Origin: a virus
Taxonomy: Duplodnaviria; Caudoviricetes
Reading direction: 5' to 3' (one strand)
Length of the DNA: 64,000 bases
Virus record (IMG/VR): IMGVR_UViG_3300023119_000004
The notes beneath the pieces were generated by a model, which did no database searches, was not told where the DNA came from, and worked only from the letters and a program-made list of their open reading frames with translations. Of this stretch, positions 15,974 to 27,923 are shown in pieces. A program made the translations under genes and the position numbers. Numbering within the stretch: the stretch's first letter is position 1; each line of letters opens with the position of its first letter.

Positions 15974-15991
15974 GCAAATATTTATGATATG

Positions 15992-18341: not shown

Positions 18342-18349
18342 TATTTATC
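18342..18349 (-). promoter_or_regulatory. Late promoter (T4 gp55-type), leaderless
   Basis: GATAAATA-5 nt-ATG. Confidence 0.65.
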
Positions 18350-18575
18350 TTTTAACTGTTTTGCCACCCATCAAATTGTTATCAATGTCGAGGGCGTTTT
18401 TAGCAGTTCCATCTGGATTTTTCTTTTGCGGAGCCTTAGGCAGTCCTTTTGAATCCTTAGGACGCTGTCCATATGCTTGTGCTGGATTAACTACTGTAGC
18501 AATAGCACCGGCACTTGTAGCACCCGCTGTTGCTGTTTCGTCTACTTTTCTATTAAATATTTCTCTTATTAGCAT
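18345..18575 (-). CDS. Putative head-internal protein
   Basis: MLIREIFNRKVDE-TATAGATSAGAIA. Confidence 0.65.
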   Translation of the reverse strand: MLIREIFNRKVDETATAGATSAGAIATVVNPAQAYGQRPKDSKGLPKAPQKKNPDGTAKNALDIDNNLMGGKTVKR

Positions 18576-18579
18576 AGTA

Positions 18580-20718
18580 TTATTTATCTTGCATTAAACT
18601 AATTATTTCACGCAATGACCCTTTCATTATTCTAACTTTAGCGTCTGTTTCGCCCATAAATCTAAGTGCATCATATCTGTGATGACCATTAACAATATAT
18701 CCTGTATTATCAATTACTATAGGAGCATAGTTGCCTTCTTTTACACGAGTCATTTGCTTGTGTAGTTTATCCCAGGATCTATTACGTTGTACAGGTTTTA
18801 TTAATGAAATATCCATATATACTTCTTCATTAGTAAACTCTTGTAAATCTTCTTCACGTACTTGCGGTGGAGCCATGCCGTTTGTTATATAAAAGTATGA
18901 AGGATCTTCATATCCAGTTTCAGTTAGATCATAACCTTCTTTAGCCAACTTAGTTGCAGTTGCATACATAACTGCTTTCCAGTTATCTCCATAACGCTTT
19001 TTAAAGTCTGCTGAACCTTTTTTCATTCCTTTAACAATACGCTCTTTGTCTTTTTCTTCGCCTTTAGTAAGTTCACGCTCGTCATACTGTGCATCATCAC
19101 CTGGCTTATCAGCATCTTGTATATCATATCCAAGACGCTTTAATTGTTTCATCATGTATTTCTTTTCTTTTTCGCCACCCCAAAATTGAAGCATAATATC
19201 AGGATCGTTAGGATTTACATCTTCAGGATCAACATCTTTGACATTGGCTATATTAGTACCAAGTTTCATAAAGTCATAGTCTGAATCTGATTTAACTAAA
19301 GAAGTATTTTTAGGATTAGGAATTAATTCACCTTCGTCTTTTTTGTGTGGATCAAAGTCAGGATCTTGTATTACAATACGATCCTTTTTAACATAAACTT
19401 CTTTACCTAGTTTACGTGCAATATCCATTAAGTCTTTTGTTCTATTAGGATCAAGATTTTTAACCATATCTGAAACAAATGATGGTAGTTTAGATGCTGG
19501 AATACTTAACGCACCTTCTTCTATATCTTCAGTTGCAAATTTATCTTCAAGTCCTTGCATTTTATAAACAGCCTTAATACCAAACTGTCTAATTTTTGCA
19601 AACAATTTATCTAGTAATGGTTTCTTACCTTGGTTATGTTTTATCAAAAGCATTAACATACCAAAGTCGTTTGGATCTTTGATTAAATCTCTTAATTCTT
19701 CTGCATATGGTTTCAATATTTTTTCAACTTCAGCCCAAGCCATCTCGTGTGCATTGACTTGTTTGTTCCACCATTTTTCCATTTTGCCTAATATTTTATC
19801 AGCAAATCCAGATAGTTTATCAGTAATACCTTCGTCCATTACTTCTTCTGCAGGTTTTTTAAAGTAGTCTTTCAAATTACCAGCCGTCCTTTCAAACTTA
19901 TGATCTTTGTGTTTAAATCCAACACCACCTTTTGATTCCCAATTTCTAATGTTACTACCAAAGTCATCAATTAATATGTTTGGTGTTCCATCTGCTTGTT
20001 TAGCAAACTTCCATTTGTCTGCTGTAATAATAACTTCTTTAGGCGGAAAGAAACTTAAATTATCTTTAACCCATTCTCTTTTGTGTGGCTCTGCTTTAGG
20101 ATCATTTGCTAGAGGAGCACTTAGTATTTTATATTCGCCTTTAAGATCCTTAATAATATTTAGTAATCCTTTGGCGTTAGGTGTTAAAGGCAAAGACAAC
20201 CAAAAGTCTTCTTTGTCTCTAATTTTTTGTAGTGCATCTTCAATATCTTTAATTTCTCTCCAATCAGCACCAACAAGTTTTTTCCAAGCAGGAAAGAAAT
20301 CTGCAAGGACACCGTCCATGTCTACAAAAATTTCTGTAGCACTAGACAGTTCTTTACCCATACGTTCGTCTACGTTTTTATACTTTTGTTTGCGGGGAAT
20401 AATTTTTGACTTGTCTTTATGCGATCCAGCGGCACCACTTTTGCGTAATGCTTCCATATCTTTCCAATTTGGATCTCTTGCTTTAATTGGTTTCTTTATA
20501 TCTTTTTTACTCTCTGCCATTCCTAAATTAAACAATGTGTTTGGATCGCTATTCTTATGTGCTTTCTTGTGCATAGTATATAACGGTTTGCCTTGTTTGT
20601 CAACCGAATTTCCAAATTTCTTTGCTTGTTTAGGGATTTCATTAGGGCCTACATCAACAGTAGTATTAACTCCTGGTACAATTAATCCGCCGTTTTCTTT
20701 TAATTCTCTAAATCTCAT
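18580..20718 (-). CDS. Modular protein with NT5C-like HAD nucleotidase and C-terminal ParB/Srx-like domain; putative virion-packaged polyprotein
   Basis: IFVDMDGVLADF...ILIDD (HAD); PIVID...VNGHHRYDAL (ParB); modules bounded by xxE sites. Confidence 0.75.
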   Translation of the reverse strand: MRFRELKENGGLIVPGVNTTVDVGPNEIPKQAKKFGNSVDKQGKPLYTMHKKAHKNSDPNTLFNLGMAESKKDIKKPIKARDPNWKDMEALRKSGAAGSHKDKSKIIPRKQKYKNVDERMGKELSSATEIFVDMDGVLADFFPAWKKLVGADWREIKDIEDALQKIRDKEDFWLSLPLTPNAKGLLNIIKDLKGEYKILSAPLANDPKAEPHKREWVKDNLSFFPPKEVIITADKWKFAKQADGTPNILIDDFGSNIRNWESKGGVGFKHKDHKFERTAGNLKDYFKKPAEEVMDEGITDKLSGFADKILGKMEKWWNKQVNAHEMAWAEVEKILKPYAEELRDLIKDPNDFGMLMLLIKHNQGKKPLLDKLFAKIRQFGIKAVYKMQGLEDKFATEDIEEGALSIPASKLPSFVSDMVKNLDPNRTKDLMDIARKLGKEVYVKKDRIVIQDPDFDPHKKDEGELIPNPKNTSLVKSDSDYDFMKLGTNIANVKDVDPEDVNPNDPDIMLQFWGGEKEKKYMMKQLKRLGYDIQDADKPGDDAQYDERELTKGEEKDKERIVKGMKKGSADFKKRYGDNWKAVMYATATKLAKEGYDLTETGYEDPSYFYITNGMAPPQVREEDLQEFTNEEVYMDISLIKPVQRNRSWDKLHKQMTRVKEGNYAPIVIDNTGYIVNGHHRYDALRFMGETDAKVRIMKGSLREIISLMQDK
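18581..18588 (-). promoter_or_regulatory. Late promoter, leaderless
   Basis: GATAAATA-5 nt-ATG. Confidence 0.65.
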
Positions 20719-20933
20719 TTCTTACGGCCTCTGAATTGTGGCATACCTGTCATAAATGGTTTTGAAAACCAAAGTTTAAACCATTCTGGATCACCAGGCT
20801 TAACACCCATGTCACGTTCTTTTTGTTTAATAGCAGTAGCAGTTAAACTAGGATTCTCATCTATTTTGTATTCTGTGTATCCTTTAAATTCACCAATACC
20901 TGCTAGTTTTTGTAATTGCTTTATATCGTCCAT
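20715..20933 (-). CDS. Putative head-internal protein
   Basis: MDDIKQLQKLAGI motif. Confidence 0.6.
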   Translation of the reverse strand: MDDIKQLQKLAGIGEFKGYTEYKIDENPSLTATAIKQKERDMGVKPGDPEWFKLWFSKPFMTGMPQFRGRKK

Positions 20934-21136
20934 TACTTCTTACCGCCCTTCATATTAGCACACCAGTGATACATTTTACCTTTCTCACCACTGTACTTTT
21001 TAGCCTTAGCACGTAATGAACTAACACTTCCTTTACAACTTGCGCCAGCCTTCTTTACACGACCAGGACGACTTTTGCCTTTCTTTTTACCATCAGCAAA
21101 GTTTTCGTATACGGATTCTATCTCAGCAAATCTCAT
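20933..21136 (-). CDS. Putative head-internal basic protein
   Basis: MRFAEIESVYE-NFADGKKKGKSRPG; Lys-rich. Confidence 0.6.
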   Translation of the reverse strand: MRFAEIESVYENFADGKKKGKSRPGRVKKAGASCKGSVSSLRAKAKKYSGEKGKMYHWCANMKGGKK

Positions 21137-21906
21137 TTGCCACTCCGTGCCATACTAATAAACCATTCTGCTAGGTCTTCGTCTTTTTTATTAAACTTGT
21201 GTGTGAATGCGTCTTTGTCGCCTTTAGCCGCCGCGGCTCTTCTTGCTTTTAATTTATCCTGTACACTTGGCTCTTCCGGAGCACGTTTCTTTTTAATAGT
21301 TGTACGCGGAACATTGCGAGTAGTAAACCCTAGTATTTCGTTTTTAATGCCCATGCCTTGTTTAACTGCATCAAACATTTCTTTTGCTAGATTTTCGTCT
21401 CCAGCAACACCTTGTTTAAATGTATCAAAGTCATCTTGTGCGGCCGCCGCCTTTAATTTACTAGCACTCATTCCTTCTGCACCTTCTGCATCAGGATCAC
21501 GTTCACCAGCATTCACAACTTCGATTACATCAAATGTATAATCATCACCGCCATTATATTTTTTAAGTAATTGATCAAAACTATCAACTCTGTCACTACC
21601 AGCAACATAAATTACTTTTGTATAACCTAGTGTGTATAGTTTTTTCATAGCATCGATAATAGTTCTAACATCGGGCGAACCAATAGTTATATCTGTACCG
21701 AAACTTTTTTGTGCAAAGTAAACTTTTTCTTTGTGTGATAAAGGATCTGTTTTAGGTTTTACAGTATGTGATAAAAAAAGAAAGTGGTCACCTGGAATAG
21801 AAGTTATTTTATCAACTAATTTCTTATGCCCAATGGTAGGCGGATTCATTCTGCCAAAAGCAAAAACAGCAATCTTTTGGTTTTCCGTAAGGTGACGAAG
21901 TAACAT
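21133..21906 (-). CDS. HIGH-motif cytidylyltransferase-like protein of T4-like phages
   Basis: FGRMNPPTIGH, VAGSDR, AG.RDPDA...MSASK. Confidence 0.85.
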   Translation of the reverse strand: MLLRHLTENQKIAVFAFGRMNPPTIGHKKLVDKITSIPGDHFLFLSHTVKPKTDPLSHKEKVYFAQKSFGTDITIGSPDVRTIIDAMKKLYTLGYTKVIYVAGSDRVDSFDQLLKKYNGGDDYTFDVIEVVNAGERDPDAEGAEGMSASKLKAAAAQDDFDTFKQGVAGDENLAKEMFDAVKQGMGIKNEILGFTTRNVPRTTIKKKRAPEEPSVQDKLKARRAAAAKGDKDAFTHKFNKKDEDLAEWFISMARSGK

Positions 21907-22241
21907 TAATACTCCCCGTTTCTCAATAACTCCTCTTCTTCTCCGAAGATTAATTCTGCAAGAGACATTTTTTCTTCTTTGGATAAAAGTTCTTCAGGAC
22001 GTTTAGGAATATCATATTTTGAACAGTAATGTTTTACACCTGTTTCGATCATTTTTTCTAAATCAATTGGACCAATTGAATTACCATTCTTAATTTTATT
22101 TTGACAATCACACATTGTTGGATAGTAAGACTTCCTATAAAAGATAGGATCGTTCTTCATATGTGTTTGAAGGTCTTGAACTACACTATAAGGTAATTCT
22201 GTTTTTTCAGGTTTGCTATCAAAATCTACTGCTTTTACCAT
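21906..22241 (-). CDS. Hypothetical protein
   Basis: 111-aa ORF, coupled junctions. Confidence 0.7.
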   Translation of the reverse strand: MVKAVDFDSKPEKTELPYSVVQDLQTHMKNDPIFYRKSYYPTMCDCQNKIKNGNSIGPIDLEKMIETGVKHYCSKYDIPKRPEELLSKEEKMSLAELIFGEEEELLRNGEY

Positions 22242-22996
22242 TTTCTACAACTCCAGTATCTTGCTTTTGTTCTTGGCCCTGGATTATCACAATTATGTCT
22301 AGCACGGAATGAACGTCTACGTGCTGGATTAGATTTTTTAATCTTCATATTAGGATCGCCAAAGTTAACTTTCTTTACGTTACCTGTTTTAGGATCCTTT
22401 ACGTATACTTTAAACTTTTTAACATCGCCACGCATAGGCTTGCCTAGTTTAACTTTACGTCCTTGGTATTCTGCTTCGTCAACAATGTCATCTTCGTTAA
22501 ACCACAAATCACCGTATGCTTCATAGAAGTCATCACCATCATATGTTTCTTCAAAAACGTTAGATAGTGTTTTTAATCTTGCTAATTCGTCTGACTCATT
22601 TTCATCTTCAGGTACAGCCTCTGCCATTTCTTGACAATCAGTACATCTTCCTACACCGTCATAAACATCTGCAATAGCCGCTCCGCAACAGTTGCTTACC
22701 ATGTCTGGTTCGTTCTCATCGCCTGGAGAATAAGATTCTTTTTTAGCCCAGTCGCCTGAAGAAAATGCAAGTCCTAAATCGGCTATAAACTTATCAATAG
22801 CGTCTTTATCAAGTGGGTTACTATCTGGAAGGATTGTTGTAAATTCTTGTCCAAAAGCACTAGGTTCTGTTTTCCAACCTAGTTGTTGAGCCGCTGTTGG
22901 TATTTTAGTATTATTGCCTTTAACAACTACCTTGGAATAGTTTCCTTCGCCTAAGGCTACTTCAGCAAGATAATCTTTAAATGTTTTATTAGTCAT
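22235..22996 (-). CDS. Putative head-internal modular protein
   Basis: MTNKTFKDYLAE resembles T4 IPIII CTS MKTYQEFIAE; CC..C..C module; basic C-terminal module EAEYQGRKVKL...RYWSC. Confidence 0.7.
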   Translation of the reverse strand: MTNKTFKDYLAEVALGEGNYSKVVVKGNNTKIPTAAQQLGWKTEPSAFGQEFTTILPDSNPLDKDAIDKFIADLGLAFSSGDWAKKESYSPGDENEPDMVSNCCGAAIADVYDGVGRCTDCQEMAEAVPEDENESDELARLKTLSNVFEETYDGDDFYEAYGDLWFNEDDIVDEAEYQGRKVKLGKPMRGDVKKFKVYVKDPKTGNVKKVNFGDPNMKIKKSNPARRRSFRARHNCDNPGPRTKARYWSCRKW

Positions 22997-23028: not shown

Positions 23029-23036
23029 TATTTATC
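23029..23036 (-). promoter_or_regulatory. Late promoter
   Basis: GATAAATA, then AAGGTG RBS. Confidence 0.6.
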
Positions 23037-23680: not shown

Positions 23681-24337
23681 TTATTTATCTGTTTTTTCTA
23701 TTGTTAGGACTTTGTCTGTACGTAGCACATTCTTGTTTAAAAATAGGCTAATCATAGTAAATGTTTGCTCATCTTTAACAAAAATATAACGTCCTTTTAG
23801 ATTATATCCCTTTTCAATATCTTCTAATACTGCATGACCAACACGTACTTTATCTGGATTCTTTTTACAATAATTTGCTAGGTTAGGGTCAGCAGTACCG
23901 TTAAGTGTAATCTTTAGTTGGTAAGTATCGTCCTCGCTAATAATAGTGTTAGCATCAAGATCTATACCTTCGGGCGGTTCAAATAGTGTGCTATTTGGAT
24001 TCTTTAATTTGCTATCTAAAAGTAACAACCAATCTTTGTTATTAGAATAAACTCCTAAATACGAACCTTCGCAACGTAATGAGTATTCTTGATCAGCAAA
24101 CGTAAAGTGATTAAGAAGTACTTTTAGATCTTCAACTTGTGAATCAGTTAAAGGCCTTTCGTGCATTCGTGTTTTTAAAAAATACGAGTTACCTTGTTTA
24201 CTATTAATAATATTATCAATAGCAGACCTAGCATATTCTAATTTTTTATTACGAAAGATATGAGCAATAGGACAGATTACACCTAATTTGAACTTATACT
24301 TATCGTAGAATAGTTTATTTGTTGTTTTATACTTCAT
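23681..24337 (-). CDS. Hypothetical protein
   Basis: 218-aa ORF overlapping the clpA stop. Confidence 0.7.
   Translation of the reverse strand: MKYKTTNKLFYDKYKFKLGVICPIAHIFRNKKLEYARSAIDNIINSKQGNSYFLKTRMHERPLTDSQVEDLKVLLNHFTFADQEYSLRCEGSYLGVYSNNKDWLLLLDSKLKNPNSTLFEPPEGIDLDANTIISEDDTYQLKITLNGTADPNLANYCKKNPDKVRVGHAVLEDIEKGYNLKGRYIFVKDEQTFTMISLFLNKNVLRTDKVLTIEKTDK
23682..23689 (-). promoter_or_regulatory. Late promoter, leaderless
   Basis: GATAAATA-5 nt-ATG, overlapping the upstream stop codon. Confidence 0.65.
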
Positions 24338-26573
24338 TGGTTACGACTTCTTTGCTTTTGATATTTAACAAGAATTCTCCATCTTTAATATCAATATTTA
24401 AGTCGCCACCGTTTTTAAGTTCACCAAACAACAATTTTTTAGATAGTGGTGTTTTAATCTGATCGTCAATAACACGTTGTAACGGTCTTGCACCCATCTT
24501 AGCATCGAACCCTTTGTCTACCAATAAGTCTATTGCTTCGTCTGTAATAGTTGTATTAACATTTTTCTCTTTTAACATATTTTTAAGATCAAGCAAGAAC
24601 TTGCCAACAATCTTAAGCATAGTATTTTTATCTAGTTTACCAAACAACATAATTCCGTCAAGTCTGTTACGGAACTCTGGAGGGAAAAACTTCTTAAGTT
24701 CTTTGTCTTCATATTCTTTTTCAAGAGTATCACCAAACCCAATTGAATTTTGTTCTGCTTCTTGTGAACCTAAGTTAGTTGTTAAAATAAGAACAACATT
24801 TCTACAGTCTGCTTGTTTACCATTAGATCCTGTAACAAATCCGTTGTCCATAATTTGTAATAGCAACGAACTTACATCAGGATGTGCCTTTTCAATCTCA
24901 TCTAATAGTAATACAGCATTAGGATTTTCTTGTAACTTAGTAATTAATAGTCCTGCGTTTTCTTCAAATCCCACATAACCTGGAGGTGAACCAATTAGTT
25001 TAGCAACTGAATGCTTTTCTTGATATTCTGACATATCAAAACGTATAAGTTTAACACCCAAGTTGTCTGCTAGTTGTTTTGCAGTTTCTGTTTTACCTAC
25101 ACCAGTTGGTCCCATAAACACAAACGAACCAATAGGTTTATTTTCTGTCTTAAGTCCTGCTTGGGCAACATGAATTTTATCAACAATGCTTTCTAACGAT
25201 GCATCTTGACCAAATACAACTGCTTTGAGGTTCTTTTCTAAGTTTGCAAGATTGCTTGTTTCTGTTTCAGCAATTTGCTCTTTAGGTAGGTCGACTGCTT
25301 TTGCAAGTTCAAATTGAATTTCTGCAACGTCAACAATTTTTTCTTCTGCTTTTTTCAATTTAAATCTTGAACAAGCACAATCAAGTAAGTCAATTGCTTT
25401 ATCTGGAAGTTTCTTATCACTTTGATATTTTACACTTAATTTAATAGCAGAGTCAACTGCTTCTTCTGTAATAACAACACCGTGAAATTCTTCGTAGTAT
25501 TTCTTAATACCTAGCAAAATACTCTTAGCAATTTCTTTACTTGGTTCGTCTACGGTTACTCTTGCAAATCTACGCATTAATGCACGATCTTTTTCAAAGT
25601 ACTTGCGATATTCTTCCCAAGTAGTTGATGCTACAACTTTAATATTTCCTTTTGTAAGAACAGGCTTTAACATATTAGCAAGATCGTTTGAACTTTGGCT
25701 TCCGCCAGCACCAGCACCACTAATCATATGTGCTTCATCGATAAACACAATAGTTTTGCCACGCTTCTTTAACCCAGCAATAACTAATTTAAAACGTTCT
25801 TCAAAGTCGCCTCGATATTTACTACCAGCCAACATACTACCAATGTCTAAATTATATACCGAATACTCTTTTAAGAATTCTGGTACAGCACCGTTTACAA
25901 TATTCCATGCAAGTCCTTCTGCAATAGCAGTTTTACCTACACCTGGATCACCTACAAGTAACACATTGTTTTTACTACGGCGACCTAGTGCAAGTGCAAT
26001 ACTTTCTAGTTCTTCGTGTCTGCCAATTACAGGATCAATTTTACCTGTTTCGGCATCTTTGTTTAAGTTAGTTGTGTATGAACGCAATGCTCTTGCCGCC
26101 ATACCTGCCATTTCCTCATCTTCAAATGACTGTTCAATTTCGTTATTCAAGTAATCTGCAAACTTCTCTTTTTCAATATCTGATTGTGCAATATAATAAT
26201 GTGCCCAAGATTTCTTTTCACTAAACATACTTAAAAATACATCTTGTATTTCAATAGTACTTCTTCCGCTAAACAATACTTGTGTAAATGCTCTGTTAAG
26301 AACACGCTCTACTGCTTGTGTCTTTTTAGGCTTGTATTTTTTATCAGCGGCTTCTCTAATAATATCTTCACATTTAGTTTTTAAATGATGTTCAACATTC
26401 TTTTTGAGATACTCAGGATCTGTTCCAAACCCGTTTACAATATTAACAAAACCGTCATCGCATAACATAGCAAACAACAAGTGCTCCAATGTTACATAGT
26501 CATGATTAAGTTTCTTAGCATCGTTAACTGCTTTGTCAAAAACTCCTTGTAAACTTTCGCTAGGTTCTACCAC
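24327..26573 (-). CDS. clpA: ClpA-like AAA+ chaperone / Clp protease ATPase subunit
   Basis: Clp N-domain (HDYVTLEHLL); GDPGVGKT/FIDEAH; KYRGDFEER; GPTGVGKT/LLDEIEKAH; GARPL; no M-domain. Confidence 0.95.
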   Translation of the reverse strand: MVEPSESLQGVFDKAVNDAKKLNHDYVTLEHLLFAMLCDDGFVNIVNGFGTDPEYLKKNVEHHLKTKCEDIIREAADKKYKPKKTQAVERVLNRAFTQVLFSGRSTIEIQDVFLSMFSEKKSWAHYYIAQSDIEKEKFADYLNNEIEQSFEDEEMAGMAARALRSYTTNLNKDAETGKIDPVIGRHEELESIALALGRRSKNNVLLVGDPGVGKTAIAEGLAWNIVNGAVPEFLKEYSVYNLDIGSMLAGSKYRGDFEERFKLVIAGLKKRGKTIVFIDEAHMISGAGAGGSQSSNDLANMLKPVLTKGNIKVVASTTWEEYRKYFEKDRALMRRFARVTVDEPSKEIAKSILLGIKKYYEEFHGVVITEEAVDSAIKLSVKYQSDKKLPDKAIDLLDCACSRFKLKKAEEKIVDVAEIQFELAKAVDLPKEQIAETETSNLANLEKNLKAVVFGQDASLESIVDKIHVAQAGLKTENKPIGSFVFMGPTGVGKTETAKQLADNLGVKLIRFDMSEYQEKHSVAKLIGSPPGYVGFEENAGLLITKLQENPNAVLLLDEIEKAHPDVSSLLLQIMDNGFVTGSNGKQADCRNVVLILTTNLGSQEAEQNSIGFGDTLEKEYEDKELKKFFPPEFRNRLDGIMLFGKLDKNTMLKIVGKFLLDLKNMLKEKNVNTTITDEAIDLLVDKGFDAKMGARPLQRVIDDQIKTPLSKKLLFGELKNGGDLNIDIKDGEFLLNIKSKEVVTNEV

Positions 26574-27094
26574 TATACATTACTCCTACTAAATTTCTTT
26601 ATTAATTTTTGTTGTTTCTTCTTAGCCAAATCAAGTTTTAGTTTGCTTACTCTGTCAATATAATTAATTCCATATAGATGATCATATTCATGACCAAAGA
26701 TTCTTGCATTCCAACCTGTTAATTCTATTGTACACTCTTTTCCGCTAGAGTCAAGACACTCTGTTACCAAACCAAATGGTCGTTTTACTTTTAGATATAG
26801 TAAAGGAAAACTTAAACAGCCTTCTTCACCTTCAATCATCTCTTCGGACACGGCTGTAATTTTAGGATTAATAATTGCAAAAGGTTTTTCATCTTCGTAA
26901 CCTTTTAATCCTGTTGGTTTAATAATAAAGATTTGTCCGTTAAACTCGACCTGATTAGCCGCCAAACCTACACCCTGATGCTTTTCCATAATTTCAATCA
27001 TATCTTTTTCAATTTGTTTAGCATCTTGTGTTTCGAAGTCAAAAGGATCAACCCTTTTCTCTAAGAAATCATTAGGATAAGTTATCAGTTTCAT
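26573..27094 (-). CDS. def: Peptide deformylase
   Basis: GVGLAANQV, EGCLS, HEYDH. Confidence 0.95.
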   Translation of the reverse strand: MKLITYPNDFLEKRVDPFDFETQDAKQIEKDMIEIMEKHQGVGLAANQVEFNGQIFIIKPTGLKGYEDEKPFAIINPKITAVSEEMIEGEEGCLSFPLLYLKVKRPFGLVTECLDSSGKECTIELTGWNARIFGHEYDHLYGINYIDRVSKLKLDLAKKKQQKLIKKFSRSNV

Positions 27095-27923
27095 TCTTAA
27101 TCTTTCTCAATTGTTCAATAATGTCAGTATCTTGTATCTTAGGAGTATCACCATAAATCTTAACAAATAGGTTACCAGTTTGCCCAGTACGTCTATCCGG
27201 AAGACCCTGTCCGTGCATACTAAAAGTTGTTCCACTATTAGTTCCAGGAGGTATTTTTAAACTTACTTCTTTGCCTTGGATAGTACGTATGTGTATACTA
27301 GAACCAATCATAAGATCAAAAACATTTACTCTCTCGTCTACATATAAATTTATGCCATCTACGGTATAACGTGGGTGCCTTCTGACTCTTACAATTACAA
27401 ATAAATCACCTCTAGGAGCATTAGGAATTTGGTCGCCGCCCATTCCGGAATATCGTATTTTATCTCCTGGTCTTACGCCTGACGGTAATGTAACATTTAC
27501 ACTTTGTTCTTTACCACTAGGTAGTCTATACGTAATTAAAAAGTCTTTACCAAACACAATATCTTCAATATCAATATCTGCGGCCAATGTAATATCTTGG
27601 TTACGCATTTGTCTTTGTCCAAATGGTGAACGATGTCCAAAAAATGAACCAAAAATATCTTCCATATCACTAGCATTGAAATGAAAACTCGAACCACCAT
27701 GCCCTCTTGCGTGTGCCTGTTGAGGATCAGCAGTTCCGTATTGATCATACATACGTTTCTTTTCAGGATTACTTAGTGTTTGGTATGCTTCGTTTAACTG
27801 TGTAAACAATTTATGATCACCACCCTTATCGGGGTGCTGAGTCGCCGCCTTTTTTCTAAAGGCAGTTTTAATTTCTTTTTCGGATGCGTTTCGTGAGACG
27901 CCTAATAATTCATAATAATCCAT
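27072..27923 (-). CDS. dnaJ: Class B DnaJ/CbpA-like co-chaperone
   Basis: J-domain with HPD, G/F linker with DIF, C-terminal domain, no Zn finger. Confidence 0.92.
   Translation of the reverse strand: MDYYELLGVSRNASEKEIKTAFRKKAATQHPDKGGDHKLFTQLNEAYQTLSNPEKKRMYDQYGTADPQQAHARGHGGSSFHFNASDMEDIFGSFFGHRSPFGQRQMRNQDITLAADIDIEDIVFGKDFLITYRLPSGKEQSVNVTLPSGVRPGDKIRYSGMGGDQIPNAPRGDLFVIVRVRRHPRYTVDGINLYVDERVNVFDLMIGSSIHIRTIQGKEVSLKIPPGTNSGTTFSMHGQGLPDRRTGQTGNLFVKIYGDTPKIQDTDIIEQLRKIKNETDNLS

Follow-up and report, generated by a model that had tools for sequence, protein, structure and literature searches.

The proteins IPI, IPII, IPIII, and Alt of T4 phage reportedly bear a capsid-targeting sequence and undergo processing by the prohead protease gp21, as described by Mullaney and Black in 1996. 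Cleavage by T4 gp21 falls after L/I-x-E, and that by its phiKZ and SPN3US homologues after S/A-x-E. In IPIII of T4, ten N-terminal residues direct proteins to the prohead, with residues 8 and 10 governing the processing, and Asp at P1 of the T4 capsid-targeting sequence prevents the cut (PMC9026906, PMC5694885). For polyvalent proteins, in turn, delivery along with the DNA and processing into units have been predicted (PMC5512222). Among published concepts, these two, T4 capsid targeting of internal proteins and polyvalent proteins, come closest to the protein described here: a polyprotein of 712 amino acids encoded by the virus record IMGVR_UViG_3300023119_000004 (Duplodnaviria; Caudoviricetes), of which a stretch of 64,000 nucleotides—the window—was analyzed. 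Its open reading frame (P0001) lies at 18580–20718 on the minus strand and starts with ATG. As judged by comparison with its relatives, the protein consists of eight unrelated modules behind an 8-residue leader, and a prohead protease probably cuts it within the head.

Read in the order of translation—all positions on the minus strand of the window—the polyprotein starts with the leader MRFRELKE (20695–20718), which ends in L-K-E and bears a likeness to a capsid-targeting sequence. Module A (residues 9–69; 20512–20694) has a mass of 6.5 kDa and an isoelectric point (pI) of 9.5, ends in NLGMAE, and is highly conserved and mostly N-terminal. Module B (residues 70–118; 20365–20511) is a basic unit of 49 amino acids and 5.7 kDa with the end NVDE. 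It is followed by module C (residues 119–296; 19831–20364), a predicted HAD 5'(3')-deoxyribonucleotidase (NT5C) of 20.4 kDa ending in VMDE, and by two further modules: module D (residues 297–401; 19516–19830; 12.2 kDa), which has the two ends ATE398 and IEE401, and module E1 (residues 402–462; 19333–19515; 6.9 kDa), which ends in KKDE. Module E2 (residues 463–547; 19078–19332) is a small acidic α/β unit of 9.7 kDa ending in QYDE, and module F (residues 548–600; 18919–19077; phrog_12788) is again basic, with 53 amino acids, 6.1 kDa, and the two ends AKE594 and LTE600. The C-terminal module G (residues 601–712; 18583–18918; 13.1 kDa) is predicted to adopt a ParB/sulfiredoxin (ParB/Srx) fold and features an invariant N-G-H-H-R. 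The predicted cut sites are LKE8, MAE69, VDE118, MDE296, ATE398/IEE401, KDE462, YDE547, and AKE594/LTE600, and the predicted pieces range from 5.7 to 20.4 kDa; modules A, B, and F are small and basic, with a pI of 9.4–10.1. A preliminary description of this gene had proposed about seven modules. The module string is real, and with the boundary KDE462 the count becomes eight plus the 8-residue leader. The six sites named there—MAE69, VDE118, MDE296, IEE401, YDE547, and LTE600—coincide with boundaries defined independently from shuffled homologues; the leader end LKE8, the boundary KDE462, and the twin sites ATE398 and AKE594 are added to them.

A protein search with the 712-aa polyprotein yields more than 1000 metagenomic homologues. 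BLAST against the best 120 of them shows parts of the polyprotein in other orders, and one hidden Markov model per module gave a map of 104 non-redundant relatives. In this map, module A is mostly first and a basic Cys/His module, H, mostly last, and C, D, E1, E2, F, G, and a further module, I, sit between the two in many permutations. The orders include A-F-E2-G-C-D-H, A-C-G-E2-H, and A-F-C-E1-I-E2-G-H; modules are permuted, lost, gained, or present as stand-alone genes, and module B of the relatives is found behind the leader of the next gene. Each downstream module occurs after four to six different upstream modules, with Glu always preceding it. Searched for with a profile, module A is present in 752 clusters at 50% identity, and the nucleotidase is missing from many of these. 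The 1836-residue protein P0132, with its "13 stretches" of module A, was rejected as a false positive—an unrelated repeat protein whose weak repeat matches had been summed.

The relatives carry extra cargo in the form of a poly(A)/CCA-type nucleotidyltransferase and a Cu/Zn superoxide dismutase (SOD). One or the other is observed in P0086 (SOD, Pfam E value of 7.6e-46), P0039, P0104, P0047, and P0050, and P0039 has the nucleotidase twice. A small, Cys-rich, basic module, GWSxKYKxSINCSNPKGFSQKAHCAGKKK, lies between Glu joints in P0006 (residues 319–346) and P0086 (residues 270–297) and resembles the Cys-containing C-terminus of a 253-aa gene of the window (22235–22996). A twin-arginine translocation (Tat)-type signal stands right after the junction Glu in P0072 (residue 680), P0118 (residue 537), and P0250 (residue 141), with the pattern [LI]TRR[GN]F[LMV]KG and a hydrophobic stretch behind it. 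This placement fits a cut that makes a functional N-terminus and hints that some pieces may go on to the periplasm.

The joints follow a common rule. Among 335 distinct leader and junction contexts, the P1 position is Glu in 318 (95%) compared with a Glu background of 6.2%, and 15 of the 17 exceptions are one-residue register slips. The P3 position is Ile in 27%, Leu in 24%, Val in 18%, Met in 7%, and Ala in 7%, which together make up 83%. Sorted by the module that follows, Glu precedes E1 in 14 of 14 contexts, E2 in 47 of 48, F in 27 of 27, and H in 83 of 83. The enrichment of Glu is far beyond chance, and the pattern is the L/I-x-E motif of T4 gp21. The silent positions at the joints differ—GAA/GAG, GGT/GGC, CGT/AGA—and no fixed DNA "shuffling junction" is present there; since these positions vary, it is the peptide that is constrained rather than a DNA recombination signal. 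The leader obeys the same rule: in 38 aligned homologues, E8 is invariant and P3 is Ile, Leu, or Met, and the pattern M-[RK]-x-x-x-[IL]-x-E matches the T4 capsid-targeting sequence in length and in its arrangement of P3 and P1. Where module A is internal, it keeps the flanks x-x-E/[DW]GRIV...NLGxxE/ (the slash marking the predicted cut).

A protease of the gp21 type is found in the lineage. The 267-kb relative G001, with 66% identity at the N-terminus of its polyprotein, codes for a Peptidase_S77 protein (E value of 4.5e-27) that aligns to the T4 gp21 structure 5JBL (E value of 8e-16) and has His and Ser at the presumed catalytic positions; its gene is adjoined by scaffold and capsid-protein genes. 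A scan with this protein identifies the gp21-type protease in hundreds of related metagenome contigs, and the contig of the window is not among the 80 loci listed. The major capsid protein of G001 (L087, 709–1878, minus strand) has the N-terminus KWLNE/TATAGSTSAG, a putative maturation site. It is almost copied by KVDE/TATAGATSAG in a 76-aa gene of the window (MLIREIFNRKVDE-TATAGATSAG...; 18345–18575, minus strand), whose product occurs in relatives as the C-terminal module of longer proteins. Peptidase families are absent from Pfam and PHROGs scans of the whole polyprotein and of ten long homologues.

Module C carries all four catalytic motifs (I–IV) of a HAD 5'(3')-deoxyribonucleotidase. The Pfam family NT5C (PF06941) matches residues 130–264 with 29.4 bits against a gathering cut-off of 24.8, and the PHROG of 5'-3' deoxyribonucleotidases matches residues 125–278 with an E value of 3.6e-20 (19885–20344). 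The module aligns to the solved deoxyribonucleotidases PDB 3BWV and 2JAO, the motifs DMDGVLADF and LIDD included. Across 105 sequences of the nucleotidase family, there is no variation at D133, D135, K235, D251, and D252, and position 200 holds Ser or Thr. The intact DxD HAD nucleotidase-like domain of the preliminary description is hence borne out, at the position given there, by the Pfam and PHROG matches and by motifs kept in all 105 sequences. The same holds for its GHHR ParB-like domain: a ParB-like PHROG matches residues 633–700 (E value of 6.7e-8; 18619–18822), and the AlphaFold2 model of module G, at a predicted local distance difference test (pLDDT) score of 88.5, has pNOB8 ParB-N, sulfiredoxin, Noc, and the serine kinase SerK as top Foldseek matches. 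The N-G-H-H-R motif is invariant in 39 sequences. As judged by this model, module G belongs to the ParB/sulfiredoxin superfamily and would bear a conserved Arg-containing (GxxR-type) nucleotide-binding motif. On the query polyprotein itself, Pfam ParBc stays below threshold; PDB profile searches with the alignments of E2 and G give no significant match, and the model of E2 (pLDDT of 68) has no Foldseek match at an E value of 0.001 or lower. The invariance of the nucleotidase residues and of N-G-H-H-R argues for selection on enzyme activity.

The polyprotein gene belongs to an operon whose first gene (MTNKTFKDYLAE...; 253 amino acids) lies at 22235–22996 on the minus strand. A late-promoter-like motif, GATAAATA, is found at 23029–23035 on the same strand, 39 nucleotides (nt) upstream of this gene. 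Copies of GATAAATA also stand 25–30 nt before the tail-fibre and baseplate genes, and 12 of the 13 copies on the coding strand sit 12–39 nt before the start of an open reading frame; ATAAATA is depleted overall in the window, yet positioned before genes. The T4 late promoter in its canonical form, TATAAATA, shows no enrichment, with 3 copies against 8.7 expected. Four GATAAATA-type motifs of the minus strand (18581–18587, 18342–18348, 23682–23688, and 15979–15985) lie 12 nt before an ATG; they leave no room for a Shine-Dalgarno sequence and could point to late mRNAs that are leaderless.

Two further genes of the cluster are built from the same parts. The 257-aa gene (21133–21906, minus strand) features the leader MLLRHLTE, a cytidylyltransferase/NMNAT-like domain, and the C-terminal module I; the latter, its last 55 residues, is embedded in the polyproteins of relatives. 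The 67-aa gene (20933–21136, minus strand) joins the leader MRFAEIESVYE to module H, which is absent from the query polyprotein and C-terminal in most homologous polyproteins. The ATG of the polyprotein and the stop codon of the gene upstream share an ATGA overlap. Homologues of the cytidylyltransferase/NMNAT-like protein occur in 556 phage records. Among them, gp154 of S-CREM2 is 36% identical to the 257-aa gene and starts with MKNFSSFLTE/A, and gp160 of S-CREM2 has a module in common with genes of this cluster in relatives. The two proteins were detected in virions purified on caesium chloride (CsCl), and such enzymes recur in cyanophage virion proteomes according to the same authors (PMC10665884). 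Virion residence of the polyprotein is thus indirectly suggested by the likeness of its leader, the late-promoter-like motif, and the presence of its neighbour's relatives in cyanophage virions.

The window is part of an uncultured giant phage of the T4 superfamily (contig Ga0255770_10000007), has a G+C content of approximately 36%, and carries nearly all its genes on the minus strand. Its family-B DNA polymerase is nearest to those of the jumbo phages Phosso, Atu_ph07, and 121Q, and the region at 39–58 kb contains baseplate and fibre genes. Just upstream of the cargo operon, at 24327–27923 on the minus strand, lie genes of a ClpA-like ATPase, a peptide deformylase, and a DnaJ-like protein. 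The identical 712-aa protein is present on 23 public contigs, the longest being a Joint Genome Institute (JGI) contig of 272,735 bp. Megablast of the polyprotein gene against 50,697 phage records gives zero matches; tblastn of the whole polyprotein against the cultured phages gives stand-alone NT5C genes and the F module only, and tblastn of module H against the phage collection gives nothing. The polyprotein is therefore absent from all cultured phages of the collection. Module F occurs in cultured cyanophages too. The cultured T4-like cyanophage S-B43 of Synechococcus (MN018232.1; L088, 2114–2923) encodes a basic protein of 269 amino acids with module F after the junction VQE/RTLS, and this gene adjoins a cytidylyltransferase gene; the protein could serve as a culturable test case. 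The F-module protein QDH50537.1 is carried by a cyanophage of the S-B43 type. The stand-alone NT5C of phage Melnitz lacks a leader of the targeting type.

In the proposed route, the late precursor would be loaded into the prohead via the leader or module A, and a protease of the T4 gp21 type would cut it after each [I/L/V/M/A]-x-Glu joint. The products would be a short leader peptide and eight free pieces, which would remain in the DNA-filled head and enter the next host with the DNA, in the manner of the T4 internal proteins and Alt. What we infer is the cleavage itself, the loading into the capsid by way of the leader or of module A, the ejection, and the substrates. Ejection of the pieces as active enzymes, by analogy with T4, is conceivable but falls somewhat short of probable, and any specific anti-defence target is doubtful at best. 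The preliminary description had held that a protease matures the polyprotein and releases enzymes right after injection to act on nucleotide pools or immune signals. This reading is partly supported. Its polyprotein part has strong support from comparison: the modules are shuffled, the joints carry the motif, and the lineage has the protease. Release right after injection would follow from the example of the T4 internal proteins and Alt. An action on nucleotide pools or on immune signals would be read from the domain families, and none of the search results ties these domains to CBASS, Thoeris, or defences that deplete deoxynucleoside triphosphates.

Several points weigh against cutting and packaging in the head. 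The case for the 712-aa protein and its close relatives is one of comparison. The gp21-type protease is known from relatives, not from the window's own genome, and the polyprotein gene lies approximately 100 kb from the head-gene cluster. At the joints, the query site K-D-E462 has a non-hydrophobic P3, P3 is Thr or Lys in about a tenth of the junctions, and the conservation of Glu could in principle stem from a linker or from the capping of domains. The virion detection in S-CREM2 concerns the homologue of a neighbour gene, not of the 712-aa polyprotein, and its authors note possible contamination by abundant proteins (PMC10665884).

A first alternative is that the protein is not cut at all. 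As an uncut multidomain "polyvalent" protein, it would keep its modules tethered in the cytoplasm or the virion, and the Glu joints would be acidic flexible linkers or recombination joints. Multidomain phage proteins that join ParB/Srx to other enzymes are well known (PMC5512222), and the virion RNA polymerase of N4 is packaged unprocessed. However, a generic linker leaves unexplained the invariant Glu and hydrophobic P3 before seven unrelated module families, the same rule at the N-terminal leader, and the free-standing modules with an x-x-E leader of their own; a DNA recombination signal is improbable given the variable silent sites. An uncut protein is unlikely. The junction rule is silent on the place of cutting, so the producing cell's cytoplasm might also be where the Glu sites are cut, with either the prohead protease at work outside heads or some other protease specific for Glu; the products would then not be virion cargo. 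This would allow for compact expression of several late enzymes, the Tat-signal modules of relatives would work in the producing cell too, and the polyprotein gene is far from the head genes. Nevertheless, such a course is quite improbable: T4 gp21 is made as a zymogen and is not known to gain activity outside assembled proheads, the leader looks like a capsid-targeting sequence, purified virions have repeatedly yielded relatives of the cytidylyltransferase that is co-transcribed with the polyprotein, and no other protease gene is seen in the cargo gene cluster.

Even if cut and packaged, the pieces could serve the head itself, through DNA condensation, core building, or charge balance, with the enzymes as passengers that do nothing in the next host. 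Small basic pieces (A, B, and F), comparable to the T4 internal peptides, make up half of the set, and A and H are the modules that stay constant across the family. This sits poorly with nucleotidase catalytic residues that are invariant in 105 sequences, bar the conservative Ser/Thr exchange at position 200, with an N-G-H-H-R of the ParB/Srx module that is invariant in 39, and with relatives that add a CCA-type nucleotidyltransferase and a Cu/Zn SOD; a purely structural role has little likelihood. The junction rule and the leader weaken all three alternatives, as do the modules that stand alone and the invariance of the active sites.

Cutting by the prohead protease inside the head, followed by injection, can be extended to a combinatorial cargo cassette of marine T4-like phages: one leader, interchangeable modules, a cut at each Glu, and pieces that are injected and act separately. 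This picture is put forward tentatively, its chances being somewhat below even. The cassette would hold a deoxynucleoside monophosphate nucleotidase and a ParB/Srx NTP-dependent enzyme in the present case, and a CCA-type nucleotidyltransferase and a Cu/Zn SOD in relatives. Some pieces might even be rerouted to the periplasm by Tat signals that the cut uncovers, and shuffling at the joints would let phages quickly reassort the set of effectors for the first minute. If this were true, one could read from sequence which proteins a very large group of ocean phages injects, with the gp21-type junction as a natural "cut here" signal by which one gene delivers many proteins. The T4 capsid-targeting paradigm would grow from one leader per protein to the polyprotein logic known from RNA viruses. 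In addition, there would be a mechanism for the unexplained enzymes in purified cyanophage particles, new candidates for early host-takeover or counter-defence functions, and a blueprint from nature for delivering several proteins with T4-type capsids.

No published account of shuffled polyproteins cut by a prohead protease was found in the literature, and several systems share some of the features. In phiKZ, 201phi2-1, and SPN3US, a gp21 homologue cleaves the ejection and inner-body proteins behind the Glu of S/A-x-E, at more than one site in some cases, and this cargo is ejected into the host (PMC5694885, PMC9026906); this processing, in another lineage, mostly trims propeptides off single proteins and does not act on shuffled module strings. 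Within the prohead, gp21 also cleaves the T4 core proteins gp22, gp67, and gp68 into multiple fragments, as is proposed here; yet they are scaffold, their fragments mostly leave the head, and they are not enzyme-bearing modular cargo. S-CREM2 gp154 (PMC10665884), the homologue of the gene two positions upstream, carries the T4-like leader MKNFSSFLTE and is present in purified virions, but is a single enzyme and not a polyprotein, and cleavage of its leader is unreported.

The polyvalent proteins described by Iyer, Burroughs, Anand, de Souza, and Aravind in 2017 (PMC5512222) likewise combine many unrelated effector domains, including ParB/Srx, in one polypeptide. The present protein shares their hallmark of two or more unrelated effector domains, with NT5C, ParB/Srx, and six other modules. 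In contrast to their embedded zincin-like metallopeptidase (MPTase) or other peptidase, it has none and instead features sites for a protease acting in trans, and its T4-like marine phage family is not described in that survey (PMC5512222). The T4 internal proteins and Alt (PMC9026906) have in common with it a short leader ending in hydrophobic-x-Glu, a T4-type prohead protease in the lineage, an expression that is probably late, an enzyme among the cargo, and diverse, fast-changing cargo sets. Whereas the T4 system uses one leader per cargo protein, the system at hand, known from sequence alone, features a single leader, the conserved 61-aa module A behind it, and then up to eight or more unrelated modules—each with its own predicted cut site and permuted among relatives.

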